64,000 nucleotides of DNA. Origin: Escherichia coli (GTDB taxonomy: Bacteria > Pseudomonadota > Gammaproteobacteria > Enterobacterales > Enterobacteriaceae). Location: assembly GCA_025336725.1 (NCBI GenBank), contig GCA_025336725.1_3647.1. One strand, 5' to 3'. A model generated the notes under the pieces. That model was given only the letters and a program-made list of their open reading frames with translations, did no database searches and had not been told where the DNA came from. How positions within the stretch are numbered: the first letter of the stretch is position 1; every line of letters starts with the position of its first letter. Position numbers and translations under genes: made by a program. Below, one piece after another: positions 1,839 through 19,605 of this stretch.

Positions 1839-3920
1839 TTAAAAAGGTGTCTCATCGTCTTCAAAACCGGGAACAGGGTCAGAGGACGGATCATCATACG
1901 GAAGGTTTTCTTGTGTGTCAACAGGGTTAACAGCAGGGGTTATAACCTTATCAGCCACAACCTTGCCCACAGGTGTTTCTACAACTGCATGCTCCTGATC
2001 CTCAAACATAGCCTGAGGTCTCCAAACAACCTCCCCACCTTCCCCATCTGTAAACATCTGCATTTCTTTGTCCCAGTACCAGTTGCTGGCATCATGGAAC
2101 TTGCCTGTGTGGGGATCCATAACTAGAGTGTCTGCAATACCTAAGGTTTTTGCTGGGCGGTTTTTAAGACCTACCAGTCGGACACGTCCACGGGAACGAT
2201 CCACCATCTCCTCTGCCTCTACCCCGACAACCACCCAGCTAAGTTGCTCCAATCCGGCACTACCGCGAAGGTTCTCTTTTCGTACAGGGTACCAGAAAGG
2301 TAACGGATTTCCATCCTTATCCTTCGGAGGTACAATCTCTGTGCGCTTCAGGTGAGCAATCACCAAGATAAACACATTAAACTGCTTACAGAACGCGGCT
2401 AGTTGAGTCATAGCCATGTCAAGTTCTTTGCGCTCATCCTTAACATTAAGCCCTGAAATCACCATAGACAAGTGATCCAGCACAATGTAACGGCAGTGAT
2501 ACAGGCACACCATTTGTTTAAGCTTAGTGATCAGCTCATCTACAGGGATGGAGCCGAAATGCTTGAACACTTTGATTTTTCCGGCCTTGGCCCAAGATTG
2601 ATGAATCTCAGCGTGCTCCTGATCGGTCAGGAACTGACTGGGGTCTTCAACAAACTCTTTAACATCAAACCCCAGCTGGTTAGCGTACAGAGAGTTGATT
2701 GCTTCCTCAGGATCCTCTTCAAGGTGAATCAGGCACAGGCGATCATCCTCTTCATAATCATCAGCTTTAGGGCATGTTGGATCCATCAAGTATCTTGCAA
2801 TGCAATGTTCCAGCTTCTTGGCTACAGTTGTTTTACCACCGCCAGACGGGCCTGTCAGCATCATCAAGGTGCCTTTGTGGAGTCCTTTCAGCATCTTCTG
2901 CAGTTTAGGGAACTCTGCACTAATATCCACGCCATTGGAAGTCTTCTTACGAAGAGATTCAATGGAGAAGTCTTCTAAATCAGATACAGCATCAGGCACA
3001 TATTTGACTGGGTGACGGAACATGTTGACAATATCTTCCAGCTTTTTAGCCTTCAGCATGTCACGAATATCTTTTACACCATCAGGGTCGTTTACCTCAC
3101 CTGGGTATTCCACGTGGTAAACGTTGTCAGCCATCAAAAATGCTGCGATATTATGCGTAGCTTCAACACCTTTGATAACGTGTTTTTGCTTCTCTACCTC
3201 GTTAGCTGCATCGTTGTCCATTGCAAGGACTACTGTTCCGTAGCTACGGATAAATTTCTCATTGTTCGCAAAAGTGTCTACGGCGTTTGCACACCCGCAG
3301 TTAATTCCGACAAAAGGCAGGCATGGTTTTCCTGCCAGATCACCGCCGTTAATAACTGCATCAATCCCATCCTGGACTTCTTTAGCCCACTGCTTCACCT
3401 TCGCCGGGGCTTTAGCATTGGTGAGAATTCCTTTTACTTGTACCTGATATGCAGCCTGCCACGCTGCAATAACATCTCCTTCCCCCTCACAAACGTTAAT
3501 CTGCTTGCGGTTGTTGGAGGATGCACACAGCTTTTGACCAAACATCTGGGAGTTGGCCTTTACTATGCCGACAACCGAGAAATGGCCCCTTTGCTCTTTA
3601 GGGATTGTCCAGTCACGCTTTTTAAAGCCAGATAGATTACCGTAGCGGTCATAATACGGAAAGTAGGTGGCAGTAACAGTTACGCCATCCTCTTGGGATA
3701 GCGATGATCGTACACCAAAATATTGTGCAGCCATCAGTCCAATATTTTGTTGTGGAACAGGGACAATTTTAGTATTTTCTAAAACAGTCTCTACAGTTTC
3801 AACTTCTTTTTCATCACGATAGTCTCGTTTCACACTTCCCCCACTTTTATACTTAGTTGCTTTCGGGTTTGGCTCACCGAAACGGTTGTATGCAGATGCC
3901 ATGAATTTACTGCCCATCAA
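1839..3920 (-). CDS. bifunctional DNA primase/helicase (T7 gp4-like)
   Basis: 693 aa; TOPRIM-like segment (..VVLAMDNDAANE..) followed by RecA-type helicase core with Walker A LTGPSGGGKTT. Confidence 0.8.
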   Translation of the reverse strand: MMGSKFMASAYNRFGEPNPKATKYKSGGSVKRDYRDEKEVETVETVLENTKIVPVPQQNIGLMAAQYFGVRSSLSQEDGVTVTATYFPYYDRYGNLSGFKKRDWTIPKEQRGHFSVVGIVKANSQMFGQKLCASSNNRKQINVCEGEGDVIAAWQAAYQVQVKGILTNAKAPAKVKQWAKEVQDGIDAVINGGDLAGKPCLPFVGINCGCANAVDTFANNEKFIRSYGTVVLAMDNDAANEVEKQKHVIKGVEATHNIAAFLMADNVYHVEYPGEVNDPDGVKDIRDMLKAKKLEDIVNMFRHPVKYVPDAVSDLEDFSIESLRKKTSNGVDISAEFPKLQKMLKGLHKGTLMMLTGPSGGGKTTVAKKLEHCIARYLMDPTCPKADDYEEDDRLCLIHLEEDPEEAINSLYANQLGFDVKEFVEDPSQFLTDQEHAEIHQSWAKAGKIKVFKHFGSIPVDELITKLKQMVCLYHCRYIVLDHLSMVISGLNVKDERKELDMAMTQLAAFCKQFNVFILVIAHLKRTEIVPPKDKDGNPLPFWYPVRKENLRGSAGLEQLSWVVVGVEAEEMVDRSRGRVRLVGLKNRPAKTLGIADTLVMDPHTGKFHDASNWYWDKEMQMFTDGEGGEVVWRPQAMFEDQEHAVVETPVGKVVADKVITPAVNPVDTQENLPYDDPSSDPVPGFEDDETPF

Positions 3921-4671
3921 TTCTTCTCCTTACTGCAGGCTCGTTTGCTAAGAATACAGCTCTTGCCCAGCCACGTGGTGTAAGGCTTCGAATCATCTTC
4001 GTCCTTGCACTCTTTCCACCTAGCTTAGCGTGTTGCATGGAATACCCGCTAACCGCGTCAACTATTTGCGGGACAGGTTTTGTGACCAGGATTATAAATC
4101 CATTACCTATCCAGCCGCAAGTTATTTTTGGATAGGCATCACGTGGAGCTATAAATTCAGGAAACCAAGGGTTTACATCATCCTCCGGTAAATACCCGCC
4201 ATAGTCAGAAGGATGAAAACGGTAATCAGGTTTGCGCCACAGTGTGGACATAACACCAACAGGATTCTCTACATGCCACGGGCAATCGTAAATCTCTCCC
4301 AGCTCTTCCGCAACCCGAGCATCCTTTACAGCATTAATTTGGATCATGGGGTCCTTAGCCAGCTTTTTCTTAAAATGTGCAGCACCTGATACCGCTAAAT
4401 GCGTGCACGGAGGAAATGCAAGAATAAAGTCTGGAGCTGGGTACATGCAAAAAGTTTCCTGAGGGAACCATGGGTCAATCCAATAATCCACATAGTGAAT
4501 GTTGGGATGATCAGTTATCACCTCTGCATAACTGCCGTGATCAGCACCTTCTGCATTAAAGCACAGGCACAGGTACCCAGCTTTTGCCCAGTCAATGACT
4601 GCACCACCAGACCCGTCAAATAGACTCCACACAACACCTTTGTGGTAGTGTTCTTTGTAGATAAATTTCAA
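3907..4671 (-). CDS. SAM-dependent methyltransferase-like protein with DNA cytosine-5 MTase-like motifs
   Basis: FDGSGG (motif I-like), FPPCTHLAVSG (PC motif IV-like), HVENPVG (ENV motif VI-like); start moved to TTG at 4671 (AGGAGA RBS 7 nt upstream) because ORF-track GTG start 4701 lies inside a hairpin. Confidence 0.35.
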   Translation of the reverse strand: MKFIYKEHYHKGVVWSLFDGSGGAVIDWAKAGYLCLCFNAEGADHGSYAEVITDHPNIHYVDYWIDPWFPQETFCMYPAPDFILAFPPCTHLAVSGAAHFKKKLAKDPMIQINAVKDARVAEELGEIYDCPWHVENPVGVMSTLWRKPDYRFHPSDYGGYLPEDDVNPWFPEFIAPRDAYPKITCGWIGNGFIILVTKPVPQIVDAVSGYSMQHAKLGGKSARTKMIRSLTPRGWARAVFLANEPAVRRRIDGQ

Positions 4672-5974: not shown

Positions 5975-6316
5975 CTACTCAAGGTCTTCAGAGTCAAGCT
6001 CAAAAAGAATCAAACTGTGCATGCCTGCAGAGAGATCAACACACCCTGCAACAATAAGGGTTTGATAGTAAGGTTCAGCACCCTCAATATCTTCGTTAAA
6101 ATCCACAACAAGGTAGTCACCTTTGTTAAAGGTGTATTTGTCCGATGTAAACGCAAAACCTGCCCAGTCCCCTACTGCAGGATCTTTATCAGTCACCTTT
6201 GTTAGTAGTAGATCTTTTTCACGAGATCTTTTAGTAAAATCGTGAATCACAACATCCTTCTCTTCAGGAGTCGGATTGCCACACACGTAGTTAACGATAT
6301 TTCTCCACAAACTCAT
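5975..6316 (-). CDS. hypothetical protein
   Basis: 113 aa ORF, 4-nt overlap with downstream helicase gene. Confidence 0.5.
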   Translation of the reverse strand: MSLWRNIVNYVCGNPTPEEKDVVIHDFTKRSREKDLLLTKVTDKDPAVGDWAGFAFTSDKYTFNKGDYLVVDFNEDIEGAEPYYQTLIVAGCVDLSAGMHSLILFELDSEDLE

Positions 6317-7683
6317 ACGTCCCCCTTTTCTGCTCTAGTTTCAAAATCTTTCCTGACTTTCTCGTCTAAGCCAGGGAAAGTTGTATTATAAAACTCTACG
6401 ACTCTCGGGTCAACAATAATATCCACCTCTCTTAATGGACGCAATAAGTTTATTCCTTGTATCGTCTTAACCCGACTCAAGGCAACATACGTCATTCCGG
6501 GAGAGAAAGCTCCGTTCTTTCCGAGGTCTAGGTTGTAACAATCTAACGTAAGTCCTTGACTTTTATGCGATGTTACTGCGTACCCAGATTTCAAAGGAAG
6601 TTGCTCATAAGACCCGATCACAACCCTCTCTATGAACTTCTCCATCTTCCTTTCGGCAATATTGTACCTCTGGGAAGGTTTGTACTCGTTATTCTCCCAC
6701 AATCTCGGCTCAATTTCAACCTGTGTTCCGTCTTCTAGCTCAACTACTACGGATTTGGTCTTGAATTTTACCACTGTGGCACGTGTCCCGTTAACATAAT
6801 ACGGAACTTTGTGAGTAGGGTCAACATCGTTTGAGGTTATCATAACCTTCATCCCTATCTTCAGCCTCATTTCCTGCTCCACAGGTAGTGTGGAAGGGAA
6901 CTTACCTTTCATTTTACCAATGTAGGTCTTCTCTGGGGCCTTGATGGCATCATAGAAACGTCTGTTCACCTCCTCTGCTTGCTTATTGGTGGCACAGATG
7001 GTCAAGGCATCTGTTGGGACACCACCATGATAGCAACGAGTGTTAAGCTCTGCTACAACCTCTTTTATGCGACGACCTTCACGAACACAGTTCAACATTG
7101 TGGCGAAGCGAACAGATTCCTGACGGAACTGGTCTACCAAGGCTATGTTGTGAAGATTAAGATCCTCCCAAGATTCTGTATAGCAACACAGATCTGTGTG
7201 GTAGAAGTTGAAGTAGGCTTCTTTCTCCATAGAAGAGACAACTGGAGGTGCTTGGTAGAAATCTCCAAACAATAACACCTGAATGCCTCCGAAAGGTTTG
7301 TCATTTTTCCGAAGAAAGCGGAGTTTTCTATCCATCTCTATGAACTTGTCAGCACGGATCATAGAGATTTCATCGATAATCAGGATGGTAAATGCCTTGC
7401 TTTTCAGAGGCTTTGCTGTTTTTGCCCTTATTGCTGTCCAGTCTGACTCCATGCTCACACCTGCGGCAAGATCGAAAGTTCGGTGCGCTGTTGCTCCATT
7501 AACGTTTAAAGCGGCTACCCCTGTCGGGGCAACCGTTATGCAAGAGTCTCCATACATGGACTGGATCATGTTGATAAGATATGTCTTCCCGGTTCCACCA
7601 GGTCCACTTACGAAGACATTCTCACCGCTCATGATTGCAACAAGGGCAGCATCTGTGCCTACATCGTACTGCCCTTTTTCCAT
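6313..7683 (-). CDS. SF1B DNA helicase (PIF1/RecD/Dda-like)
   Basis: 456 aa; Walker A VSGPGGTGKTYL, Walker B IIDEISM, motif LLFGDFYQAPPV typical of PIF1/Dda-like helicases. Confidence 0.8.
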   Translation of the reverse strand: MEKGQYDVGTDAALVAIMSGENVFVSGPGGTGKTYLINMIQSMYGDSCITVAPTGVAALNVNGATAHRTFDLAAGVSMESDWTAIRAKTAKPLKSKAFTILIIDEISMIRADKFIEMDRKLRFLRKNDKPFGGIQVLLFGDFYQAPPVVSSMEKEAYFNFYHTDLCCYTESWEDLNLHNIALVDQFRQESVRFATMLNCVREGRRIKEVVAELNTRCYHGGVPTDALTICATNKQAEEVNRRFYDAIKAPEKTYIGKMKGKFPSTLPVEQEMRLKIGMKVMITSNDVDPTHKVPYYVNGTRATVVKFKTKSVVVELEDGTQVEIEPRLWENNEYKPSQRYNIAERKMEKFIERVVIGSYEQLPLKSGYAVTSHKSQGLTLDCYNLDLGKNGAFSPGMTYVALSRVKTIQGINLLRPLREVDIIVDPRVVEFYNTTFPGLDEKVRKDFETRAEKGDV

Positions 7684-8924
7684 TACGCCTCCTCGTAGAT
7701 AATGTCGATAGTATTACCGTCGCGGTCAACCACGTACTCAATTGGGTCGCCATCTTTGCGCGATTCTGGAGCTACTACGATTTCGTAGCGGCATGCACGG
7801 CACTTGGCGCTGTTGTGTTGGTAAGGTACACTAACTACATCGGCAGGGTCAACCATAACCGTCATCACAGTTCCGTAGCTCTTTGCATACTCTTTGCTGG
7901 CACAGTGCAGGCCATAAGAGCATGCAGCTTCCGGATCATCCTCTACAAAGTTACGAGGCATGGATACAAAAGCCCCCTGGTATTGTGGGACTTTACCACT
8001 GTGCCAATCCACCCACTTGTCGCCGTTAAACTGAACCCCTTTGTAGCAAATGATTCGACCATCTTCTGCAATCTGAATGTCGTTTGCCTGCATAAAATCG
8101 TAGAGCATGTTTACAGATTTTGCAGAAGGATTGCGTAGCAGGCGAACGAGGAATTTCACATAGCGGTCATCCAGTGTTCCGTCTGCATAATCTTTCTCAA
8201 TTTTCTTTGCAATGGTGGATCGCATCTCTACACCGTAGTAGTAGAGCTTACCATCTTTCATGATCAGGTTGTCTGCAAGTGTGGTGAACTCATTCTTTCG
8301 TTCCAGCCAGACAAGGATTTCACCAATTGCCTCGTCATATTCCTGAACAGAGATATGGTCGAAGACTTTCTGGTAAACTTCCTCACTTTCACTGCGGCGA
8401 ATTTCAAAAATACCTTCGTTGCAGGTGATCTGGAGGAGTTCCCCGCAAATAACCACCAAAGGCTCGATGCTTCGGGTCTGTTGCTGAGACACACTGCTCA
8501 CCACCTCCAGCACCGGGTCTTTTACTTCTACTAAAGGTTCTTCTGACTTGATTGCTACCCCAGTGAACCCTACACCGTGAACAACACACAGTGGATATAC
8601 CACACCCCAACGTTTAACGGAACCTTCTCCTAAATCTAAGATCATGGCGTACTTACCGTTATCTTCCAGCCCATATCGAAATAAACGGGCCTCTTCACGG
8701 GTTTCAAAATACTCACGGGTGTAGCAGACGCTGTCACGGTCAGGATCGAACAACTCTGGGGCACCTACTGCCAGTGTCCAGGTTGTGTTACCTTTCTCAA
8801 TAGCGCATGTGAAACCCTTCTTCTCAAGCTCTGCACGGCGGTCACGTGCTTCTTTACGAGTTTTGAAATGTTCGTAGATGAAAATCATCTTGGTCTCCTT
8901 ATTTGATGTTATTCTTTGTATCAA
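7683..8924 (-). CDS. rIIB: rIIB-like protein
   Basis: 413 aa directly downstream of rIIA-like gene; C-terminal region (..LYDFMQANDIQIAEDG.., ..VDPADVVSVPYQHN..) matches my recollection of T4 rIIB. Confidence 0.75.
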   Translation of the reverse strand: MIQRITSNKETKMIFIYEHFKTRKEARDRRAELEKKGFTCAIEKGNTTWTLAVGAPELFDPDRDSVCYTREYFETREEARLFRYGLEDNGKYAMILDLGEGSVKRWGVVYPLCVVHGVGFTGVAIKSEEPLVEVKDPVLEVVSSVSQQQTRSIEPLVVICGELLQITCNEGIFEIRRSESEEVYQKVFDHISVQEYDEAIGEILVWLERKNEFTTLADNLIMKDGKLYYYGVEMRSTIAKKIEKDYADGTLDDRYVKFLVRLLRNPSAKSVNMLYDFMQANDIQIAEDGRIICYKGVQFNGDKWVDWHSGKVPQYQGAFVSMPRNFVEDDPEAACSYGLHCASKEYAKSYGTVMTVMVDPADVVSVPYQHNSAKCRACRYEIVVAPESRKDGDPIEYVVDRDGNTIDIIYEEA

Positions 8925-10881
8925 TCAGTTCACGGTATTCAATCATAGCAGGAGTGTCCCAATATTTCAAGCCTACATGCTTCAAAAGTGGATATTTCTT
9001 TTCCAATCTTGCAATATAGGCCTTCCCGCACTTAACCCCGTTGGCGATTAAGATTTTGGCACGATGATTTAGCTCACCGTATCTCCACGTGGTGCTACCT
9101 TCCCACTTGTGGAAATGTGGCCGATAACTTCCAAAATCCTGCATGGGGATAATTTTACCTAACTGTCTGTACAGGCTGTCATATGAAGTTTCATTTGCTG
9201 CGCGAGTTAGTAAGAATTTCCAAGCATCCTCTTTCAACAAATGTTCCACATCCTTCTCTGTAACATATTGGCAATCAGGATCAGTCCAAAGCAGACGAGA
9301 TTCCGACACCAGGTACAGATCTTCCCCTTCAGGAATCTGGAGTGCCGCACGCACACGGTCATAATCTTGCTGGTAGATGTTGCTCATCTGCCCTAGCCAA
9401 CAACTTCCGCGTTGGATATCCCCCTCATACGGTATGCAGTGCTTAATCTTCCTGAACTCTGCCTTAGTAATACGCTCACGCCGGAAGTAACCATCCTTCT
9501 CAAGTTTTTTAACCCAATAGCCTGGTTCGTAACGGGTTTTGGTTTCACCTTTCTTCGTAGGTCGGCGTGGAAGCTCCGATAACAATTTGACCGTATCTGC
9601 AAAAAACGGATGGTGTGCCGCCTCTTTAAACTCTTTCACCAGATCCGTGTTACGGCAATAGAAAACGTTGCGTCCGGTAATCTCGCTTAAGTAGTTACAC
9701 TTATTCCGGTTATATTTGCCGTCTCCGTCGTTAAATACTAAATAAACTCCCCGTAAGAATTCTACCTTTCCGTAGCAGGCGTAACCTATGCGGCCTTTAT
9801 TTAAGCCGCCAGCGAAGATCTCGCAGTCCCCCAAATTTCCTAGCCCTGTTTCTTCCCAGCGGTCATACATAAAATTCTTACCGAAGATGTGCCCGAACAC
9901 TCCACTGTTCTTCATCATCTCGCGTGCTTCTGAGGATGTTTTTGCTGTCTCCAGTTCTGCAACAACTTCTGCTCCACGAAGGCGAATGCCTTCTTTGACA
10001 AAAGCTTCCAAACGCTCTTGGAATCCACCATCGTCGTGACCTTCTATGGTCCATTCACGCCCTGGGTTAATATTGCAATCTCCGATAGGGATCTCTACAC
10101 AAATTGCAGGATAATCTATTAGTGTCTCCAGGAACTTAGAACGGTAAGGTTGGTGACCCATTACCACACGACTCTCGTCAGAGCTGGTATAACCCTTCAG
10201 GATGGTCATCTTCCAACCATCTTTTTCATAATAATACTGCGCCTCTACTTTGTCTCCCTCCAGCATCTTGCTCGTCATCGGGTCGGTGACAGTGAACGGA
10301 AATTTTGCATAGCGCAGGCATGATGCAATAGCGGTGCGATATTTCAGAACATGCTCTTTCTTAACATGAAACTGAACTTTTACCCCGTTGTGCTCTTCAG
10401 TCTTCCGCTCACGGATCTTGGTGACATTTGGGATACCCTGGTCCAAGAACAATAGGTATGTGCTTTCCACACCGTTGTGCACACTGATTACATCGAAAGT
10501 GTCCACCATGCTGAACGGGGCCTTTGAACCAACACCCTTATTACCAACCAGAGCGTTGCTATTGCGCTTGGTTGACTCACCGAGGTTCATGAAAGTGTTG
10601 CGGACCATTTCTTCTGACATACCGAGGCCAACGTCCTGCACAAAGAAGTATGGTTCAAGATCTGTAGGAGAGTGAATGATGATCGGCATATCACCTCGTC
10701 CAGACTCAACATGGGAGTCCACAGCGTTGAAGATTGGTTCACGGCAGTTTGCCAGCACCTTATCTTCATAAATCCCTTTAATGATTAACCCAAAAGTCTC
10801 TTTGTTCAGAGAAATTGATCCCCTTGTGACCTCCAAATTCCCAGTTAGCACTGCTTTAGTTTCATTACTGTTTACAATCAT
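8899..10881 (-). CDS. rIIA: rIIA-like protein (GHKL/Bergerat ATPase fold)
   Basis: 660 aa; N-terminal GHKL motifs ..VQDVGLGMSEEM.. and ..GNKGVGSKAPFSMVDTFDVISVHNG.. closely resemble T4 rIIA (..RDFGPGMSDFD.., ..[25 protein letters not shown]..). Confidence 0.8.
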   Translation of the reverse strand: MIVNSNETKAVLTGNLEVTRGSISLNKETFGLIIKGIYEDKVLANCREPIFNAVDSHVESGRGDMPIIIHSPTDLEPYFFVQDVGLGMSEEMVRNTFMNLGESTKRNSNALVGNKGVGSKAPFSMVDTFDVISVHNGVESTYLLFLDQGIPNVTKIRERKTEEHNGVKVQFHVKKEHVLKYRTAIASCLRYAKFPFTVTDPMTSKMLEGDKVEAQYYYEKDGWKMTILKGYTSSDESRVVMGHQPYRSKFLETLIDYPAICVEIPIGDCNINPGREWTIEGHDDGGFQERLEAFVKEGIRLRGAEVVAELETAKTSSEAREMMKNSGVFGHIFGKNFMYDRWEETGLGNLGDCEIFAGGLNKGRIGYACYGKVEFLRGVYLVFNDGDGKYNRNKCNYLSEITGRNVFYCRNTDLVKEFKEAAHHPFFADTVKLLSELPRRPTKKGETKTRYEPGYWVKKLEKDGYFRRERITKAEFRKIKHCIPYEGDIQRGSCWLGQMSNIYQQDYDRVRAALQIPEGEDLYLVSESRLLWTDPDCQYVTEKDVEHLLKEDAWKFLLTRAANETSYDSLYRQLGKIIPMQDFGSYRPHFHKWEGSTTWRYGELNHRAKILIANGVKCGKAYIARLEKKYPLLKHVGLKYWDTPAMIEYRELIDTKNNIK

Positions 10882-11378
10882 TTATTGCGCTCCTTGTAGT
10901 AGATATGGTTCCCGAATTGAGCTGTCCTCTGCATCTTTTTTGCCCATTTCGGTCGTATTTTGGTTGTATGGTAGTGTGTTGCTCCACCTGTTATATCCAT
11001 AGCCATGTATGCAACATGGTTGTTATTATAGACCTTTAGAAGCATCTTTGCAAGACTTTTAGCGTGATCCCATGAATCTTTTTCTGTCACCTTAAAAGTT
11101 TTGCCGTGGTTTGTCCACGAAAACTGGTTAGGTTGGTAGACAATCTTTCTTATCGTGTCTGGGTATTTAGGGTGGGATTTCCTGTTTAGTGTGGCAAACC
11201 CAGATGCCAGCATACCCATCGTGCCATCCCCTCTAGCCTCCCTGTAGATATTGCATGCCAGAATGTTTTCCTTAGTATCCGATGGCTTGCAAGTATGATA
11301 TACTTTTTGTTTTGGTGCTGCAACAACAGGCAGCGATAAAAGTGCGCTCAAAATAATAGCAAAGATCTTAATTTTCAC
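10878..11378 (-). CDS. secreted cell-wall hydrolase, SleB family (endolysin candidate)
   Basis: 166 aa; N-terminal signal peptide MKIKIFAIILSALLSLPVVAAP; SleB-like motif NIYREARGDG...ATLNRK...YQPNQFSW. Confidence 0.6.
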   Translation of the reverse strand: MKIKIFAIILSALLSLPVVAAPKQKVYHTCKPSDTKENILACNIYREARGDGTMGMLASGFATLNRKSHPKYPDTIRKIVYQPNQFSWTNHGKTFKVTEKDSWDHAKSLAKMLLKVYNNNHVAYMAMDITGGATHYHTTKIRPKWAKKMQRTAQFGNHIYYKERNK

Positions 11379-11391
11379 AATAACTCCAAAT

Positions 11392-11417
11392 AGAAAATCC
11401 CCGCCGAAGCGGGGGTG
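11392..11417 (-). terminator. rho-independent terminator
   Basis: Minus strand CCCCCGC-TTCG-GCGGGG hairpin followed by TTTTCTATT, just downstream of stop of ORF 11427..11807. Confidence 0.6.
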
Positions 11418-11426
11418 TCTTAGAAA

Positions 11427-11807
11427 TTAATCGTAGTGTGCCAAAATCTCTCCATCGTTGCAAGTTCCTTCTACAAAGTTATGAAGATTCATGCACTCAT
11501 CTTGATAGAAGAATTTACCGCTTTTCAGCCGTAAGCCAAACAACTCCGCATCTCCACGATGGCAAGCCTCTACAAGTTCATAGATTTCATACGGCAACTC
11601 TCCGTCGTCATGGAAGAACCCAGCTTTATCGTTGACATAGATGAAGAAATAATCACTGCTGTCGCAAGCGTCCAATATTTCAAACCAGATTTCATCTACA
11701 TCTTTTTCTCGGATATCGATCACGCAAGTGGAGCTGCATTCGTACTCCTTCTCCGGCTCCTCGGTCAATACTACCAGGTAGTTTCCCCGCTTACCTACTT
11801 TAGCCAT
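11427..11807 (-). CDS. hypothetical acidic protein
   Basis: 126 aa, strongly D/E-rich. Confidence 0.5.
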   Translation of the reverse strand: MAKVGKRGNYLVVLTEEPEKEYECSSTCVIDIREKDVDEIWFEILDACDSSDYFFIYVNDKAGFFHDDGELPYEIYELVEACHRGDAELFGLRLKSGKFFYQDECMNLHNFVEGTCNDGEILAHYD

Positions 11808-11816
11808 ACAACCTCC

Positions 11817-13001
11817 TCAAGCTTTAGCCAAAATGGCGCTAAACTCTTCACCAAACTCTTTTACAATCTTCATCAGGTTTGGGTACGCTTTGATCAGTTG
11901 AGCAACGATCTTGTCACGACCTTTACCGATAAGCAAGGCATTTCCTAAGGCATTAGGTTTCATCATCGCCATAAAGACTGAGAATACAAAGTCTCGGTTC
12001 TCATCCTTGAAATTTTCCCAAAGGAAATCAAGGAAGTTTGCCACACAGCTGACGAGATCTTCGTCGGAGATACTTGCATTTTCCATCATGTTACGAATAG
12101 CGATACAACCTTCAGACCCCAGAATCCACAAGATGTCTGGCTGCTTAGGGCCTACATATTCTTTGCAGCCTCCTGCCATAATCCGACCGATTTCTGGCAA
12201 GTTTCGTTTCTTGGTGTGGTAGGTCCAAATTTCTACCGCTGCAGTGTGACCAATGGCACCTTGTAGAAGAACACGGGCCATAGCGTCAGAAATAATACCG
12301 CTGTCAAAATCGTGCAGGATGTCAGATGCAGCAACCCAAGAGCGCGGTGTAGCAAAAGATGGACAATTAATCTCAGCCATGGCCTCATAATTATCGATGG
12401 CTGATGGGACTCTTTTCAGATATCCAATTACCGAGGAGTGCACCCCATTAAGGAATGCATAGTCCTCAATAAACACCTCTGCACTGCTTGTAACTTCTAC
12501 AATGATAAAGCGGTTAGCTAGAGGAGCTTCGAGTGCCGAAAGAACAGCACCGTCTGTAGCACGGTTACCTGCAGCTACAAAAACAGAGCCTTTAGGAAAT
12601 GCATAGGTGCCGCACTTGTGGTCGAGCATAATTTGCATTGCAACCTTCTGCAGGTAGTTATCTGCATGAGTAAGCTCGTCTAGAAAGATAATTCCGCTCC
12701 AGTCCGGATCTGCAGGCCAAAATTCTGGAATTGCAAACACTGTACGTGTAGTTCCATCTGCCTCCACAGGGATAGGCAGTCCAGATAAGTCAGCAGGATC
12801 TTTATCTGACAACCGCACGTCAACCAGGTTGTCATCTCGCTCACCGAACATATTATCAGCAATCTGCTTCATCACCTGGCTCTTCCCCACGCCCATCGGT
12901 CCTAAAATCAGGACAGATCGGTTATGACGCTGGGCAAATTGAATAATAGCTGGCAACTCGCGGACAGTGATTTGACCACTTTCGAATACGTTTCTCGACA
13001 T
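11817..13001 (-). CDS. MoxR-like AAA+ ATPase (AAA_5 type)
   Basis: 394 aa; Walker A GPMGVGKS, Walker B IIFLDEL, sensor-like VAAGN. Confidence 0.7.
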   Translation of the reverse strand: MSRNVFESGQITVRELPAIIQFAQRHNRSVLILGPMGVGKSQVMKQIADNMFGERDDNLVDVRLSDKDPADLSGLPIPVEADGTTRTVFAIPEFWPADPDWSGIIFLDELTHADNYLQKVAMQIMLDHKCGTYAFPKGSVFVAAGNRATDGAVLSALEAPLANRFIIVEVTSSAEVFIEDYAFLNGVHSSVIGYLKRVPSAIDNYEAMAEINCPSFATPRSWVAASDILHDFDSGIISDAMARVLLQGAIGHTAAVEIWTYHTKKRNLPEIGRIMAGGCKEYVGPKQPDILWILGSEGCIAIRNMMENASISDEDLVSCVANFLDFLWENFKDENRDFVFSVFMAMMKPNALGNALLIGKGRDKIVAQLIKAYPNLMKIVKEFGEEFSAILAKA

Positions 13002-13270
13002 TAGTAAAAGTCCTCTACTTGTGTGTAAGTGTTTTCAAAGTTTTCCAAAACAGACATCACATCGGATCTGTCAATATCATACGCAACTCTCCAGACATAT
13101 GCAACCCTTTCTGCTGTTGCCTCTTCTGGCGCTAGTCGTCTGCTGGCATAAAAGAGTGTTGGAGTACACTTTCTTGCTTGCCCTCTAACTTTCCCATAAT
13201 AATATCTGTGAATATCTTTGTCAAAATTTAATTCTTTTTCTGCACGAAGTTCGTACTGCTGGTATAACAT
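13001..13270 (-). CDS. hypothetical protein
   Basis: 89 aa ORF abutting ATPase gene. Confidence 0.45.
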   Translation of the reverse strand: MLYQQYELRAEKELNFDKDIHRYYYGKVRGQARKCTPTLFYASRRLAPEEATAERVAYVWRVAYDIDRSDVMSVLENFENTYTQVEDFY

Positions 13271-13314
13271 CTCTACTGCTCCTTAAGCAGCATCCTTGCT
13301 GCCATCCATACCCA

Positions 13315-13695
13315 CTAAAATGCAGTCCGAATCCAGACAAGGTTCTTATCTGCCCAATCATAGAGGCAAGTCATTGCACTATTGAATTGCTCACACGGAG
13401 GATAATCTTCTTCCATCTTGCGCATAGCAGAGCCTTGTGGGTAAAGCTCCCGTGCTGCAAACCACGCGTCGTAGTCATCAACGGTATCGAAGTAGTATAC
13501 AACATCCTCCAACTCAGGATCGAACTTTGAACTATCAGGATCCAGCTGTTCAGGGAACTTGGAGCGTAACTTGCCAGCCACAATACTTGCCAACTCGCTA
13601 ACATGCTTGTTGTCCCACTCTACCAGTTTCCCGTCTTCAGTTATGCGTCCTAACCACTGATCATGAAGGTCAACTGTTGTCTTCCACTGGGCCAT
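13315..13695 (-). CDS. hypothetical acidic protein
   Basis: 126 aa ORF. Confidence 0.5.
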   Translation of the reverse strand: MAQWKTTVDLHDQWLGRITEDGKLVEWDNKHVSELASIVAGKLRSKFPEQLDPDSSKFDPELEDVVYYFDTVDDYDAWFAARELYPQGSAMRKMEEDYPPCEQFNSAMTCLYDWADKNLVWIRTAF

Positions 13696-13697
13696 TA

Positions 13698-13955
13698 TCA
13701 GTCTACCTCTTCTTCTCGTTGCAGTTCAAGATACCCATAGGTCTGGATATCTTCAAGGGTGTGGAACTCTCCATCTGCTGCTAAGGCACGGACAACCTGG
13801 CATAGAGTTTTATAAGGTACTTTCTCCAAACCCAGATTCAGCGCAGGAAAAACCTTATCTAAGTCAACAAAATATACAAACTGTAGCTCACCAGTTTCAA
13901 AAGGCGTATCTTCGATAAACATCTTCTCGGCATTAGTCAAGATCTGCACTTTCAT
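13698..13955 (-). CDS. hypothetical acidic protein
   Basis: 85 aa ORF; start overlaps stop of upstream ORF by 1 nt. Confidence 0.5.
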   Translation of the reverse strand: MKVQILTNAEKMFIEDTPFETGELQFVYFVDLDKVFPALNLGLEKVPYKTLCQVVRALAADGEFHTLEDIQTYGYLELQREEEVD

Positions 13956-14311
13956 TATTCTACCCCCTCTTCTTTTTCTTCAGCATTAGTTTCAGTGCTA
14001 CCCCACTCTGGATTTTCCACCTCGATAGTGAACTCACGCACTACACGGTAATTGCCCATGAAGCGCTCCACTTCTTCAAGGCTTATGGAGAGGCCATTGG
14101 CAACCAAATCTGCAGCACCCTTCTCTACCAGGTAGTCCAGATTGGCTTCCAAGGCTTCAGGCTCAAACCCTGTCAATGCAATCATATAACCTTCCCCTTC
14201 ATCAAGGAGGGCAATACAGCCCAACTGATTTTCTTTTAAAAAGCAGTGACCATCACTATTGATTGGTTGCTCATTGCAGTAAATAGCTGCACGATAAGTA
14301 ACTTTAGACAT
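13955..14311 (-). CDS. hypothetical acidic protein
   Basis: 118 aa ORF, acidic C-terminus. Confidence 0.5.
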   Translation of the reverse strand: MSKVTYRAAIYCNEQPINSDGHCFLKENQLGCIALLDEGEGYMIALTGFEPEALEANLDYLVEKGAADLVANGLSISLEEVERFMGNYRVVREFTIEVENPEWGSTETNAEEKEEGVE

Positions 14312-14323
14312 TGGTAGGCCTCC

Positions 14324-14602
14324 TTAGGCAACTGTCATTTTACATTCTTGAAATTTTAGCACAAGACGGTGATTGTGTCTAGTGTCTAAAAAGATTTTTT
14401 CAACCATCAGGCACACGGTGTAACCGTCCATCTTGTTGACAACAAAATCCCCAGGGTGAGGGAGAATGTCCCCAGGATTGGGGAAACATAACCCGCTCAA
14501 GAAGGCATCATCGGTGGTGGACCTGATGGATTTCCACACACTATCTGCCTGGACACTCTCACCAACATAATATACACTACCACATGCCTTCATCATAGTC
14601 AA
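14324..14602 (-). CDS. hypothetical protein
   Basis: 92 aa ORF; 4-nt overlap with upstream gene. Confidence 0.45.
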   Translation of the reverse strand: MTMMKACGSVYYVGESVQADSVWKSIRSTTDDAFLSGLCFPNPGDILPHPGDFVVNKMDGYTVCLMVEKIFLDTRHNHRLVLKFQECKMTVA

Positions 14603-15498
14603 ATCTCCGCGTAAATTAAACTGGAATCAGTATACTTCTTTAGTGGGTAAATATCCTGTCCATAGATGCCGTCATTAAACACCTCATCTACCCAAAGGCT
14701 ACACTTATATCCCATCATCTCTAAAACACCCATCTCTTCTTCGGTAAACTTATCACCGCTCTTGCAAGATGTCAACACCTCATTCTGTACTCTTGCTACC
14801 TCGAAGCGATTATTGGCAATATCGCTATTAGCGATCAAATACTCACCCAAAGGGTGTGCGGCATTAAAGATGCACAGTGGACGGTTGACGTAATAGTCTC
14901 CAGGTGTATAAAAATTATTGAGGTCTTTCACTAGAACATTCTTATCAGTCACTTCATTTATAACATCATGCATATCGCACATCTTTATATGTTTGAGGAT
15001 TCCATCCCCCATCACAAAATAAAAACTTGCTGAAACACTTTCGGCATAGATCTTACTAGATCCGTTGTAGTTGTATTTTACTCGGATGCTAACGGAGGTT
15101 TTTCCTGTCGCGTTAGCCATCATCCAAAGGAACGGAAGTTCAAACTTCTCCTCTGAGGAAACAAAAGGTGAAGTTGCCAGAGATCGGAAACCACCAGAGA
15201 AGTTGAAAGTTACAGAGCCGCTCCGGCGATATGATACCGCATATTCTACTTTTATATCGACATAGCCGTTGGAGTAAGTGTGGCCTCCATTATCCAGATA
15301 TGTCCACTTATCAGATCCGGATACCAGCCTACGCTCAATAACCTTCATTACTATAGGAATTAGCGGGTTGGTACAAACCGATTTTGAAGTAGCTTTATCA
15401 TCCAAAGCCTCGTAAATTGCAGAAAGGATATCACCTGCTGAGAGATTGGTTGTGATATCTTGTTTCCACCGAGTGCTAAAGCTGTTAAGATTTGCCAT
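14599..15498 (-). CDS. hypothetical protein, first gene of leftward early operon
   Basis: Start set to ATG 15498 (AGGAG RBS; MANLNSF..), because ORF-track GTG at 15540 lies upstream of the predicted -10 element. Confidence 0.5.
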   Translation of the reverse strand: MANLNSFSTRWKQDITTNLSAGDILSAIYEALDDKATSKSVCTNPLIPIVMKVIERRLVSGSDKWTYLDNGGHTYSNGYVDIKVEYAVSYRRSGSVTFNFSGGFRSLATSPFVSSEEKFELPFLWMMANATGKTSVSIRVKYNYNGSSKIYAESVSASFYFVMGDGILKHIKMCDMHDVINEVTDKNVLVKDLNNFYTPGDYYVNRPLCIFNAAHPLGEYLIANSDIANNRFEVARVQNEVLTSCKSGDKFTEEEMGVLEMMGYKCSLWVDEVFNDGIYGQDIYPLKKYTDSSLIYAEI

Positions 15499-15538
15499 GA
15501 TTAAGTGCTCCTGTGTTCGTTTTCTTTCGAATGGGTGC

Positions 15539-15567
15539 ACTATATCGTAGATTTATAGTAAAGTCAA
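15539..15567 (-). promoter_or_regulatory. sigma70-like promoter, leftward
   Basis: Minus strand TTGACT (15567-15562), 17-nt spacer, TATAGT (15544-15539). Confidence 0.55.
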
Positions 15568-15580
15568 TACGTTTTTGAGG

Positions 15581-15609
15581 TTGACATCTGTCGAGGCACT
15601 TGATAAGAT
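15581..15609 (+). promoter_or_regulatory. sigma70-like promoter, rightward
   Basis: TTGACA (15581-15586), 17-nt spacer, TAAGAT (15604-15609); back to back with the leftward promoter. Confidence 0.55.
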
Positions 15610-15640
15610 TTCTTCACCTACAAAGCACAAGAGACAACTC

Positions 15641-16630
15641 ATGAATCTTGAAAAATATTATACACCAGAAGAGTTAGAGCGCCTGCTCAAAAAATATAGA
15701 CGTAAACAGAATAATGCACGGAAACGAGATATAGAGTTCAACCTGTCATGGGAAGAATATCTCCTATTTGGTAAAAAACTTTTAGGAGAGGGAGTATGCG
15801 ACTATACCCTTATACCTTTCGACATGCACACAGATGAAAACGGACTGGGAAATCCTTTCTACCCATCTCTAGAGCGGATAGATGATGAAGGTCCTTATGC
15901 GGTTGATAACTGTTGTGTGGTAGGATTGAGATGCAACTCTCTAAAGGACTGTCTGGTAGATAAAAAGACCGCAGTCTTGATTAAAGACAAAACTGATCGA
16001 AAAATTGTCCAGCAGATGATGCTCCACCTGAGCGAAGAGCGTATGGAGAAATTGAAAGGTGATTACACTTTTGAAGATTTCATCTTGCAATATGGAACGG
16101 AAGAGGATAAACTAGCACTCTTTGACGAAGAATGGGAGGAAGATATGTCACCAATGCAGGATTTTAAAAACTTCATGGCTAATCGTGGAGCCAACAAGCA
16201 CATTTCTGACATTGTAAACGAGCCTGCAGTAGAGGAGATTGAAGAGATGACGCAACAGGCTTACGAAGAGGAAAAAGAGCCTCAAGGGGTCGAAGAAGAG
16301 CTTACAGAAGAGGTTCCTGCACTGCCTGACGATGTTGAGATTGCCAAAGCTTACACTTTCTATTGCCAGACGTTCTACGATGCAGGTATGAAAGTTGATC
16401 TGTCATTCAGCCAGTTTAAGAGCACATACATTCGAAAATGTTGTGCTTTAACTGGTGAACGTCTCGGTGCCGGACTTAAACCCCTATTAGTTACCGACTG
16501 GAACAAAGGTTTCACCAAAGGTAACTTCATGGTAGTATCTCCAATCATGGAGAAGGCTATGACAGACCTTATGAAGACCACTCGCATGACAATGACCGAG
16601 TTGGCTGGTATTTTCAAGCACGTTAAATAA
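15641..16630 (+). CDS. hypothetical acidic protein with two degenerate HNH-like halves
   Basis: Start moved to ATG 15641, downstream of promoter; central E/D-rich linker; ..SLERIDDEGPYAVDNCCVVGLRCNSLKD.. and ..CCALTGERLG..LVTDWNKGFTKGNFMVV.. Confidence 0.45.
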   Translation: MNLEKYYTPEELERLLKKYRRKQNNARKRDIEFNLSWEEYLLFGKKLLGEGVCDYTLIPFDMHTDENGLGNPFYPSLERIDDEGPYAVDNCCVVGLRCNSLKDCLVDKKTAVLIKDKTDRKIVQQMMLHLSEERMEKLKGDYTFEDFILQYGTEEDKLALFDEEWEEDMSPMQDFKNFMANRGANKHISDIVNEPAVEEIEEMTQQAYEEEKEPQGVEEELTEEVPALPDDVEIAKAYTFYCQTFYDAGMKVDLSFSQFKSTYIRKCCALTGERLGAGLKPLLVTDWNKGFTKGNFMVVSPIMEKAMTDLMKTTRMTMTELAGIFKHVK

Positions 16631-16642
16631 TGACAGGGGCCA

Positions 16643-18124
16643 ATGGCCCCTTCTGGAGTTTTAATGGATAGCAGAAGTTCAGAAATCATTACCGCACAAA
16701 AAGATGATGCCTTGCGAATGCTGCAGGCCGCTCGCATGTACCTTCTTGAAAAGCTGCCGTTTTATGGCACACTGTTGTCAGGGTTGCAGTTCGTAGAAAA
16801 CCACACATGGTGCTCCACTATGGCAACAGACCATAAACGCATCTACTACAGCCCTGAGTTCATTATGGGGTTGGCAGATGAGCGTAAAACCATTCTTAAA
16901 GCATCTCTGACTGACAAGCAGTTTGAGATGGCTGAGGTTTTCTATTCCCCAAAATCTGTGAAAGAGGTGGCCTTCCTTCTGTCACATGAGGTGGGGCATA
17001 TTATCTGTGATCATCTGGTCCGTGGTAAAAGCTTTGAGCCGGAACTGTTCAATATTGCTTGTGATCACGTTATCAACACAGGTCTTGTGGTTGACTTTAG
17101 CAAGCCTCCTTGTGTTTTCTTCCCGAAGGGGAAAAGCACTGAGTTCGTAAAAGGTAAGCCTTTTGGCTTCTTAGCTAATTGCTACTGCGACATGAAGTTT
17201 CATGGATGGATTGCTGAGAACGTCTATGCAGTTCTTGATAAACAAAGAGATCAGAATAGCGGTAAAAGTAAGAACGGTAAAGGCGAGAACTTCCAAGGAG
17301 ATAAACGACAAACCGATGATCACATGAGCGGGAACGGTGGCACCAGTGATGATCTTGGAAAGGCTATGGGGTATGATCAGCCGCAACCAGTAATCAGTCA
17401 ATCTGATAAAGATCAGGCCATGCAGGACTCTGGTGACATGTTGGAAGCAGCAATGCAAGCTTCAGGAGGTCGTTGCCCTGAGGCGGTGCGCGAGTTTGTC
17501 AAAAACAGAGGCAAGCCTGTAATCAACTATATAGATATTATTAAGCAACGTATGTTGTCTAAACGAAAGGCCGAGCTAACCTACAGAAAACCTGGTCGCC
17601 GATCTGGGTCTTTGACCACCACAATGCGAAAAGTTGGAGCTATAAACAAGAATCAACACATTATTGTTCCTGGTCGTAATCCGGAAAACACCATAGATAT
17701 TGTAGTGGCTTTGGACGTTTCTGGGTCGATCTCGCAAAGAACTTTAAAGAAAATGTTCAATGAGATCACCGGGTTGTGCAATTTGTATAAAGAGTTTAAG
17801 GTTACGATGTTCTGTTGGTCAACCGAGGTTGGAGAGGTTAAAGTATACACTCGCGGTAACATCGATGAGATGATTAACTATGAGGTCCACTCAACATGGG
17901 GCACAACAGCCGCCTGCGTGTTCGAGTATCTGGATGCTAACATACCGAATGCAAAAGATGTCATCGTCCTTACCGACCTCTACTTTGAGCACAACTTTGA
18001 ACAAAAGGCTGTTGACAACAAGTGGAAAAAGTACGATACTTTATGGGTTCTCACCGAAGGGTATAATAAAAATTATATCCCGAGCTTTGGGAAAACTGTG
18101 GAATTAATCGAGTATGCTAAGTAA
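16643..18124 (+). CDS. putative metallopeptidase / von Willebrand factor A domain protein
   Basis: 493 aa; HExxH motif (LLSHEVGHIICDH) in N-terminal half; VWA MIDAS-like DxSGS (IVVALDVSGSIS) in C-terminal half. Confidence 0.6.
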   Translation: MAPSGVLMDSRSSEIITAQKDDALRMLQAARMYLLEKLPFYGTLLSGLQFVENHTWCSTMATDHKRIYYSPEFIMGLADERKTILKASLTDKQFEMAEVFYSPKSVKEVAFLLSHEVGHIICDHLVRGKSFEPELFNIACDHVINTGLVVDFSKPPCVFFPKGKSTEFVKGKPFGFLANCYCDMKFHGWIAENVYAVLDKQRDQNSGKSKNGKGENFQGDKRQTDDHMSGNGGTSDDLGKAMGYDQPQPVISQSDKDQAMQDSGDMLEAAMQASGGRCPEAVREFVKNRGKPVINYIDIIKQRMLSKRKAELTYRKPGRRSGSLTTTMRKVGAINKNQHIIVPGRNPENTIDIVVALDVSGSISQRTLKKMFNEITGLCNLYKEFKVTMFCWSTEVGEVKVYTRGNIDEMINYEVHSTWGTTAACVFEYLDANIPNAKDVIVLTDLYFEHNFEQKAVDNKWKKYDTLWVLTEGYNKNYIPSFGKTVELIEYAK

Positions 18125-18130
18125 GAGAGG

Positions 18131-18397
18131 ATGGTATTTATGGCAACAGAGGTAGTAATTAAAGCTGAACGCCCAGTTAAAAAAGCTATCAACACGTTCC
18201 CTGTAGGAACCATTGTGAGCATGATTACAGAGTCAGGCCGTGTATCTACACTGCTAATCGTGAAATCTGCATGCTCATCTTGTGTGTGGGCATACGATCT
18301 TGACGAGAAAGAACTGAAAGATTTTGTCGGGGAGCTGAAAGCAACAGAGCTTGACGCTCGTATCGAAGTATTTGGTGAAACTATGGAGGAAGAGTAA
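18131..18397 (+). CDS. small hypothetical protein, paralogue 1 of 3
   Basis: 88 aa; shares F-x-x-G-[ET]-[IV]-[VL] and downstream Cys pattern with the next two ORFs. Confidence 0.45.
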   Translation: MVFMATEVVIKAERPVKKAINTFPVGTIVSMITESGRVSTLLIVKSACSSCVWAYDLDEKELKDFVGELKATELDARIEVFGETMEEE

Positions 18398-18660
18398 TGA
18401 CTACAAAAATCACCATTGCAGAACCAAAAGCTAACACGCAACCTATCGAAAAGTTTAAATGCGGTGAGGTGGTAACATTCACACCAGATAATGAAGATGC
18501 CAAGATTTTTGCCATGGTCACAGCCGAGTGGATGTGTGACAATACCACACAGGTGCTGCGTTTTGACACCTATCTTACAGATGAAATCAGGAACGACAAG
18601 ATCGTGACTGGTGTGGATACTGAGATTATTTTCTACAAGAGCTTTTTAGAGGGTTTCTGA
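18397..18660 (+). CDS. small hypothetical protein, paralogue 2 of 3
   Basis: 87 aa; start overlaps upstream stop. Confidence 0.45.
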   Translation: MTTKITIAEPKANTQPIEKFKCGEVVTFTPDNEDAKIFAMVTAEWMCDNTTQVLRFDTYLTDEIRNDKIVTGVDTEIIFYKSFLEGF

Positions 18661-18661
18661 T

Positions 18662-18895
18662 ATGGCAAAAATTCGTAAATTATCCAGCAATCAGGTTGTG
18701 AAAGACTTTGAATCTGGGGAGATCTTGTATGTCCGTGATGCAGATGATGAATGTGAAGATCTTGTTATGCTGGTAGGGCACGCTGAAGACGGATGCATCC
18801 AGGCTGTTTTTCTTGAAACAGCGATGGTGCACTGGATAGAGCTGGACCTGAAAGCACGAAAACCTAAAGCAGAAATCATTATTTACGAAGATTAA
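18662..18895 (+). CDS. small hypothetical protein, paralogue 3 of 3
   Basis: 77 aa; FESGEILYV... pattern. Confidence 0.45.
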   Translation: MAKIRKLSSNQVVKDFESGEILYVRDADDECEDLVMLVGHAEDGCIQAVFLETAMVHWIELDLKARKPKAEIIIYED

Positions 18896-18911
18896 CAAGA
18901 AGGAGAGAGCC

Positions 18912-19361
18912 GTGTTGAGCAAACGTGAATGCGACAGCATTAGCCTGAATTCTTATAAGAAACAATGGTTTGGTGTAGAAGTTTGCCGACTACGGCTGGG
19001 CTCCTACTTGAACTTCGTCCATTATGAGAGCGACAGTCGTATCGTTTCTTATGAAGTGTTCTACACTAAGAATACATTCGAGCTGAGACGTAAGGTGGAT
19101 GGCGGGAGATCTACCGCCCAGAATAATTGGGAAACTATTCTGCCTCCAGATGTTATAGGAAGTCCCCTGAATGTATCTGAAGATGAAAATCTTATGGTTC
19201 ATGCTATGATGGGACTTGACAGCTTAGAGCTGGCGATCTATGATATGTCCATCGAAGCAGTTAAGTTGGACTACATCGAAAACACTTTAGAGGAAGGTAT
19301 CAAGAAGTTTCTCGGTGAGAAATTGAAAGCCCACTTTCATAAGGAGCTATATCTGTTATGA
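18912..19361 (+). CDS. hypothetical protein
   Basis: 149 aa ORF. Confidence 0.45.
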   Translation: MLSKRECDSISLNSYKKQWFGVEVCRLRLGSYLNFVHYESDSRIVSYEVFYTKNTFELRRKVDGGRSTAQNNWETILPPDVIGSPLNVSEDENLMVHAMMGLDSLELAIYDMSIEAVKLDYIENTLEEGIKKFLGEKLKAHFHKELYLL

Positions 19362-19603
19362 AGACCCGTAAAGAACGTAACAAGATTTTACCTGGCGCTC
19401 TCGAACACATGATGAAGTGCAGATCTATCTGGCACTCTGCCAAGGAGGGCCAGCATGTGGTCGTGGTTAGTGATAATGTCAACCCGTTCGGTGATTATGT
19501 CACCATGATGACTCCATACATCCGCGACGGTGTTGTGGAAGTGGTTCCTTATAACGGTCTGCATGAGAGGCATTTTGAGAGCACTTTGCTAGTGGAGCTA
19601 TAA
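19358..19603 (+). CDS. hypothetical protein
   Basis: 81 aa ORF, 4-nt overlap with upstream ORF. Confidence 0.45.
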   Translation: MKTRKERNKILPGALEHMMKCRSIWHSAKEGQHVVVVSDNVNPFGDYVTMMTPYIRDGVVEVVPYNGLHERHFESTLLVEL

Positions 19604-19605
19604 TT

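Follow-up and report, generated by a model that had tools for sequence, protein, structure and literature searches.

The myophages of Escherichia coli related to rV5 and FV3 (genus Vequintavirus) carry a gene whose annotation as a Hydrolase_2 cell wall hydrolase dates from 2013; gene 2 of rV5 is listed in Table S3 of its genome description as a "cell wall hydrolase" of 166 amino acids (aa) with a pI of 10.0 and a match to PF07486 (PMC3606486). The signal peptide of this SleB-like protein and its conservation in all genera of the Vequintavirinae were described in 2020 (PMC7344957). Passages of the rV5 description name gp89 (Phage_lysozyme) as the lysin and the 78-aa gp129, with two transmembrane domains (TMDs), as the putative holin (PMC3606486, gp129 in Table S3), and Buttimer et al. 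place the rV5 Rz/Rz1 pair next to the large terminase gene (PMC7344957). Both the gene, with its family and signal peptide, and the scattering of lysis genes in rV5-type phages are therefore already known. Here we consider the gene in a 64,000-nucleotide stretch of E. coli assembly GCA_025336725.1 (contig GCA_025336725.1_3647.1), referred to as the window, in which it occupies positions 10878..11378 on the minus strand. A reading of the window made from its letters alone (the sequence-only reading) had presented it as a SleB-like hydrolase with a signal peptide, sitting among early genes with no holin or spanin beside it, and as the only recognizable murein hydrolase. With a probability of about 0.6, we regard the protein as an accessory enzyme that hydrolyzes peptidoglycan in the periplasm, reaches it without a holin, and is not the main lysis device, and it appears to lack a holin and spanin mainly because the 64-kb window stops before the ordinary lysis genes.

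The window gene is the same gene as rV5 gene 2, FV3 ORF002, and the ECP26 "cell wall hydrolase" in another isolate; all code for 166 aa, share 97 to 98% aa identity, and are alike in their overlap with rIIA and in the hairpin upstream. The open reading frame (ORF) is intact, begins with GTG, and is preceded by a Shine-Dalgarno sequence, GGAG, recognized from the sequence 5 nt upstream of the start (11384..11387, minus strand). Thirteen synonymous and four non-synonymous codon differences separate it from FV3, and the gene is under purifying selection; the four aa changes (L13F, I141V, K144E, and N157S) mark no functional difference. Its identity as a SleB/CwlJ-family peptidoglycan hydrolase draws on this relationship and on two profile collections: Pfam Hydrolase_2 (PF07486) matches with E = 9.8e-20 and 71.5 bits against a gathering cutoff of 27, spanning profile positions 2 to 100 of 100, and the protein falls in PHROG 938, "endolysin" (E = 1e-27). 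The family is very large: at E<=0.001 a profile search finds 27,736 cluster representatives, and 381 remain at E<=1e-30. A homolog is present in 1,336 phage records; near-identical GenBank records number more than 100.

In a phmmer search of the PDB, aa 38 to 160 align with the SleB catalytic domains 4F55 (E = 3e-6) and 4FET (E = 2e-5), the only matches by sequence. An AlphaFold (AF2) model built from nine homologs has a mean predicted local distance difference test (pLDDT) score of 88, and Foldseek matches it to the same two PDB domains only (probability 1.0, template modeling [TM] scores of 0.72 to 0.78 on the target; TM 0.78 and root mean square deviation 2.7 for 4FET). The phmmer alignment, model, and Foldseek matches together delimit a predicted catalytic domain with a SleB-like fold at aa 38 to 161 (10896..11267, minus strand). 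Glu47, the GAG codon at 11238..11240 (minus strand) within the motif N-I-Y-R-E-A-R-G, is the predicted catalytic glutamate; it aligns with the catalytic Glu of Y-G-E-S-R-G in 4F55 and 4FET (Bacillus SleB) and is unchanged throughout the nine-sequence homolog alignment, and an E[AS]xx motif is present in 143 of 150 family representatives. If it acts as Bacillus SleB does, the enzyme would be expected to cleave peptidoglycan as a lytic transglycosylase at MurNAc-GlcNAc bonds. The predicted mature protein has 146 aa and two cysteines and is very basic, with 26 K/R and 10 D/E residues.

The first 20 residues, MKIKIFAIILSALLSLPVVA (11319..11378, minus strand), have the heuristic features of a Sec signal peptide with predicted cleavage at VVA/AP (the slash marks the cut): lysines at positions 2 and 4 in the n-region, a hydrophobic core of 15 to 17 residues, Pro at -4, and V-x-A at -3/-1. 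By rules of thumb this is a cleavable type I signal peptide. The Kyte-Doolittle value of the best 17-mer (2.58, residues 5 to 21) is the highest among plausible window genes, and no other plausible gene among the greedily selected window ORFs has a strong N-terminal hydrophobic segment, the remaining hits of that scan being tape-measure fragments or spurious antisense ORFs. Orthologs in four other groups (Certrevirus, Seunavirus-like, Justusliebigvirus, and T5-like phages) have signal sequences that are unrelated to one another but end in AXA-type sites (ALA/K, VLA/K, AQA/E, and SQA/S), and a hydrophobic N-terminal segment is present in 132 of the 150 nearest family representatives. The segment looks more like a cleavable signal than like a signal-anchor-release (SAR) domain because it is rich in I, L, F, and V (10 of 17 residues strongly hydrophobic), is low in Gly/Ala/Ser/Thr (~35%), and contains Pro and an AXA-type site. 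Such a signal also sets it apart from canonical holin-dependent endolysins, which have none. The protein is thus a genuine member of the Hydrolase_2 family with a conserved catalytic Glu, preceded by an export signal; family, predicted fold, Glu47, and N-terminal features all agree, and the description of this gene as a SleB-like hydrolase with a putative signal peptide stands.

Whether the phage has other lysis genes can be judged from its relatives. In megablast searches with three parts of the window, it is 94 to 98% identical in nucleotide sequence to rV5/FV3-like E. coli myophages, and many of their GenBank records span each query wholly or for the most part. The closest relative is S127 BCL3; FV3 position 1 corresponds to window position 8899, and the right end of the window carries neck and tail-sheath genes, short of the major capsid protein gene. 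Lysis genes were checked directly in two colinear genomes, FV3 and S127 BCL3. FV3 codes at 70869..71357 for an endolysin of the lambda-R type (GH104) that lacks a signal, identified by its match to lambda lysozyme in the PDB (1AM7, E = 1.5e-48) and without a Pfam match at E<=0.1; the same endolysin is at 43238..43708 in S127 BCL3, ~17 kb past the point where the window ends. Beside TerL in FV3 (60097..60779) is an i-/o-spanin pair, one member with a transmembrane segment at its N terminus and the other, encoded in overlap with it, a lipoprotein (LLCGC lipobox); ORFs of the same length occupy this position in S127 BCL3. FV3_00121 (94416..94652) is a 78-aa putative holin with two strong TMDs and a charged tail and is the equivalent of rV5 gp129. 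The lambda-R-type gene has matches of 80% identity or higher in at least 92 phage records, and it occurs together with the SleB-like gene in FV3, rV5_ev156, nom, SYGMH1, and YN3. A pairing of Phage_lysozyme with a Hydrolase_2 "lytic protein" has also been noted for related phages (PMC12210895; PMC10793346).

The lysis genes of rV5-type phages are dispersed, as in T4, and do not form one cassette. The sequence-only reading had named a lysis cassette outside the window as the finding that would count against it; the colinear relatives essentially supply one, albeit as scattered genes. Its claim of a single recognizable murein hydrolase stands within the window, where tblastn with the FV3 lambda-R-like endolysin, an FV3 68-aa ORF, both spanins, and T4 e finds nothing below E = 0.28 and Pfam finds no muralytic domain in ten tail and baseplate proteins, the ORFs scanned for such domains; it fails for the phage type, whose relatives carry the GH104 endolysin. 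Likewise, no holin adjoins the hydrolase, but the relatives carry the 78-aa two-TMD putative holin beyond the window. The 68-aa ORF (FV3 ORF084, 48103..48309 of sequence L002; 43772..43978 in S127 BCL3) has an N-terminal hydrophobic, lipobox-like segment (MAAC/LAC) and sits just downstream of the lambda-R-type endolysin, with an HNH endonuclease gene between them in FV3.

These findings bear most directly on the idea, implied by the sequence-only reading, that the hydrolase is the principal endolysin and that Sec export makes a holin dispensable. It is the sole recognizable wall hydrolase in scans of the window, many ortholog records and PHROG 938 carry the label "endolysin," and a relative is reported to be toxic on expression. 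The labels in GenBank are automatic transfers of a family name, however, and the coexistence of a classical lysis set contradicts the idea: the colinear genomes of FV3 and S127 BCL3 hold genes for a lambda-R-type endolysin without a signal, for spanins, and for a two-TMD putative holin, and the cited passages on rV5 choose gp89 as the lysin. The gene also lies in a replication-type block behind a terminator-like hairpin and starts with GTG. Taken together, a principal endolysin is a very improbable identity for this protein.

The sequence-only reading had pointed to one small membrane protein as the sole holin candidate in the window and noted that it is embedded in the fiber region. The 88-aa ORF exists in the tail-fiber module (29837..30103, minus strand; PHROG 1322, "membrane protein") and is conserved in that module across Vequintavirinae and Stephanstirmvirinae. 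The holin gene t of T4 adjoins the T4 tail-fiber genes, so a location among fiber genes is no argument against a holin role. Nothing positive favors this role either: the ORF is weakly hydrophobic (maximum Kyte-Doolittle 17-mer of 1.27), has no match in a Pfam search, and has no homolog labeled "holin" among the matches listed.

All neighbors of the hydrolase are on the minus strand, in a leftward block of replication or early type that includes a primase-helicase (1839..3920), a Dda/Pif1-like helicase (6313..7683), an rIIB homolog (7683..8924; PHROG 609, E = 1.6e-61), and, downstream of the hydrolase, an rIIA homolog (8899..10881; PHROG 612, E = 5e-122; Pfam HATPase_c_3) whose start overlaps the hydrolase stop by 4 bp. 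Upstream are an acidic 126-aa protein with no hydrophobic segment (11427..11807) and a MoxR-like ATPase (11817..13001). The block corresponds to the rV5 leftward unit "10-1-238-164," in which the relevant passage of the rV5 paper includes the DNA polymerase (PMC3606486). With rIIA and the soluble 126-aa protein as flanks, neither a holin-like nor a spanin gene adjoins the hydrolase, and, within 10587..11378, no ORF of at least 30 aa in another frame of the coding strand is hydrophobic, in agreement with the sequence-only reading. Its placement of the gene among early genes is likewise a fair description, taken from the neighborhood only. The 126-aa gene (rV5 gp3, reported to be similar to T5.083) was considered as a sign of shared synteny and rejected, as it is not adjacent to SleB in T5-like or Certrevirus phages.

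Directly upstream of the hydrolase ribosome-binding site is a hairpin resembling an intrinsic terminator, CCCCGC-UUCG-GCGGGG at 11399..11414, followed by AUUUUCUAUU (whole element 11389..11414, minus strand). It has six G-C pairs, is the strongest terminator-like hairpin in a scan of 8500..16000, and is identical in FV3. Because it lies just upstream, leaves no space for a promoter before the gene, and is followed by a GTG start, it suggests low expression of the hydrolase by terminator read-through; the hairpin is thus a putative terminator that may attenuate the gene.

The location bears also on whether the protein could be a virion-associated lysin that crosses the wall during DNA injection. 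Wall hydrolases in tails are common among phages, and none was recognized in the ten tail and baseplate proteins scanned, which would leave room for one. But the gene is in the replication block, outside the structural module, and the passages cited from the rV5 proteomics section do not name gp2 as a virion protein (PMC3606486). A Sec signal would moreover take the protein away from the site of virion assembly, the cytoplasm, and we find a virion lysin hardly credible.

Sister lineages differ from the window in what follows the gene. Other SleB-like proteins of the Vequintavirinae (Pectobacterium phage CB7_83 and Cronobacter phage CR3_087 and CR8 gp090) likewise have a signal peptide and Hydrolase_2 domain, are encoded in the replication region, and share 46 to 57% identity with the window protein. 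In Cronobacter phage CR8 (Certrevirus), a 62-aa two-TMD holin-like ORF (3929..4117 of sequence L004) overlaps the SleB-like stop, and in the Seunavirus-like Salmonella phage SEW_6S, a two-TMD ORF of 57 aa whose tail is charged (3952..4125 of sequence L005) lies between SleB and rIIA in the order SleB, small ORF, rIIA, rIIB, and helicase. Vequintavirus has no such ORF at that position, and the window gene runs directly into rIIA. The neighbor of the SleB-like gene in CB7 was proposed by Buttimer et al. to be a class II holin (PMC7344957).

These small ORFs, the CB7 proposal, and the homolog in PaP1, whose N-terminal anchor looks uncleaved, are what one would expect if the hydrolase were a membrane-tethered endolysin of the SAR type with a pinholin-like partner, the remnant of a second lysis module that no longer has its small membrane-protein partner at this place in Vequintavirus, through loss or relocation. 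For the window protein itself this is improbable. Its strongly hydrophobic N terminus, with a helix-breaking Pro and low Gly/Ala/Ser/Thr content, looks cleavable, and no small membrane ORF adjoins it where a pinholin partner would be expected. The small ORFs of the sister genera have no detectable similarity to the FV3 putative holin FV3_00121 (BLASTP E = 0.013 and 0.22, single comparisons that are uninformative for membrane proteins this short), and no literature was found that treats SleB together with signal-arrest-release.

Beyond the subfamily, exported Hydrolase_2 genes are present in Vequintavirinae, Stephanstirmvirinae, T5-like Demerecviridae, and Pakpunavirus, and in the examples examined they are apart from the canonical endolysin. 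T5-like phages have a holin and lysozyme together and SleB separately in the early region (PMC3326045). Their SleB (AKFV33 ORF81 and Gostya9 T59_00073c) is also a small exported Hydrolase_2 protein apart from the holin-lysozyme pair, but with ~40% identity in the domain, other neighbors, and no rII association; the Pakpunavirus homolog adjoins DNA ligase and phosphohydrolase genes. Hydrolase_2 is among the domains that dominate the lysins of phages with Gram-negative hosts (PMC8223927). The chromosome of Pantoea sp. C3 codes for a 148-aa Hydrolase_2 homolog with 38 to 40% identity (2911..3357 of sequence L060), located between zupT and ribB, with genes for GSP synthase, a LigB-type dioxygenase, a ZIP transporter, DHBP synthase, a BMFP/UbiK-family protein, and an HldE-like kinase as neighbors; it is a chromosomal family member and not a prophage gene. 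Its housekeeping neighborhood puts ordinary periplasmic enzymes, tolerated by their cells, within the family. E. coli itself has several periplasmic lytic transglycosylases, and low-level glycan cleavage need not kill.

A role in early periplasmic remodeling of the wall that is not aimed at lysis can be considered in this light, acting on superinfecting phages, cell enlargement, muropeptide release, or in partnership with rII. The gene adjoins rIIA/rIIB and replication genes and not late genes, T5-like phages (in the early region) and Pakpunavirus likewise keep it away from the canonical lysis genes, and the housekeeping homolog in Pantoea and the tolerance of E. coli for its own enzymes fit. 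Set against these are the holin-like two-TMD ORFs that directly follow the gene in two sister lineages and suggest a link to lysis, and the reported toxicity of a relative on expression; we hold this role as a tentative and rather unlikely alternative. At a comparable level of confidence, and as speculation, small Sec-exported Hydrolase_2 enzymes could serve large virulent phages of Gram-negative hosts as an accessory function that recurs among them, expressed early and acting on the wall well before lysis (remodeling, superinfection exclusion, or lysis priming). The Vequintavirinae gene may then be the remnant of a second lysis module, a hydrolase with a two-TMD holin-like protein linked to rIIA/rIIB, from which Vequintavirus has lost the holin partner.

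An accessory hydrolase is preferred over these alternatives because the enzyme would get to the wall unaided by a holin and because a classical set of endolysin, holin, and spanins is present in the phage type. The precursor would be made with a Sec signal peptide, exported, and probably cut by signal peptidase I after A20, and the basic 146-aa mature enzyme would act on the wall in the periplasm. Low expression through terminator read-through and a weak GTG start would let the cell tolerate the enzyme until late infection, while it pre-loads or weakens the sacculus. Main lysis would depend on the cytoplasmic lambda-R-type endolysin, the two-TMD putative holin, and the Rz/Rz1-type spanins, all presumably encoded outside the window.

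Several points weigh against this account. Cleavage of the signal peptide is called by rules of thumb and not by a trained predictor, the timing of expression is read from the gene neighborhood alone, and the terminator role of the hairpin is putative. The endolysin, spanins, and holin attributed to this very phage are those of colinear relatives at 94 to 98% identity. The transglycosylase chemistry is borrowed from spore enzymes, and E. coli lacks their natural substrate, the muramic delta-lactam cortex. The homolog in Pectobacterium phage CB7 was reported to be toxic when over-expressed in E. coli (PMC7344957), but this report is of data not shown and concerns a relative with 46% identity, and our literature search found no experimental work on the Vequintavirus SleB-like protein or a close ortholog.

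Other differences from the relatives are scattered over the window. The tape-measure homolog (54327..56662, minus strand) is broken over frames -1/-2/-1/-2/-3 relative to FV3, and the Dit-like homolog of FV3_48 is cut in two (53336..53791 and 53811..54245, minus strand); these frameshifts (53336..56662) are probably indel errors of the source assembly, and otherwise the genes are pseudogenes. A giant gene with immunoglobulin (Ig)-like domains, a single 5.6-kb coding sequence in FV3 (14055..19688), is present at 22396..28033 (minus strand) as three ORFs (22396..23043, 23058..26369, and 26423..28033), which may reflect further frameshifts or stops or a genuine difference from FV3. Relative to FV3, ~1.8 kb is inserted at 57451..59255, between the tail assembly chaperone gene (56977..57450) and the tail tube gene (59256..59729), and carries a 412-aa ORF without a Pfam match (57524..58762) and a 99-aa ORF (58850..59149). 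Two neighboring large ORFs at 15575..18124 (plus strand) match PHROG HNH endonuclease families strongly and Srd/sigma70-decoy families weakly, and public labels for the pair vary among relatives between "anti-sigma factor" and "HNH endonuclease." In addition, 16 to 23 GenBank records (MG0656xx) titled as Campylobacter phages (A147, A135, A13b, A112b, A12a, D#, and others), with C. jejuni as host, match E. coli rV5-like phages at 93 to 98% identity over the window; either the host appears to be mislabeled or a contaminant served for propagation of the isolates.

The result is corrective, in that the picture of a hydrolase without a holin or spanin is largely a product of the window boundary, and the database labels "endolysin" and "SleB" claim more for this gene than is known. 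In several families of large lytic coliphages, the early genes include one for a second wall hydrolase, which is exported. No knockout or biochemical study of it was found in the literature; its role would matter for when lysis occurs and for which lysins are chosen for applied use.

Two kinds of characterized enzyme can be compared with the protein. It resembles the catalytic domain of Bacillus SleB (4F55 and 4FET) in Pfam family, predicted fold (TM 0.78), and the glutamate of the N-x-Y-x-E-[AS]-R-G motif, but identity is ~21 to 24%, and the phage protein lacks the peptidoglycan-binding domain at the N terminus, the YpeB partner, and the spore cortex substrate. Bacillus SleB is a germination-specific lytic transglycosylase, whereas the phage enzyme is a single domain of 146 aa in its mature form with predicted export to a Gram-negative periplasm; lacking the binding domain and any spore context, it is not SleB in the strict sense, and the name is a family label here that implies no orthology. 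SAR endolysins (P1 Lyz and R of phage 21) and the Sec-secreted Lys44 of Oenococcus phage fOg44 use the Sec system, and no holin pore, to reach the wall. The hydrolase is like them in its predicted Sec route, although they belong to other catalytic families, and SAR domains are Gly/Ala-rich and uncleaved whereas its signal looks cleavable. P1 Lyz, phage 21 R, and Lys44 are moreover each the sole endolysin of their phage, whereas in phages of the rV5 type a classical endolysin coexists with the exported hydrolase.

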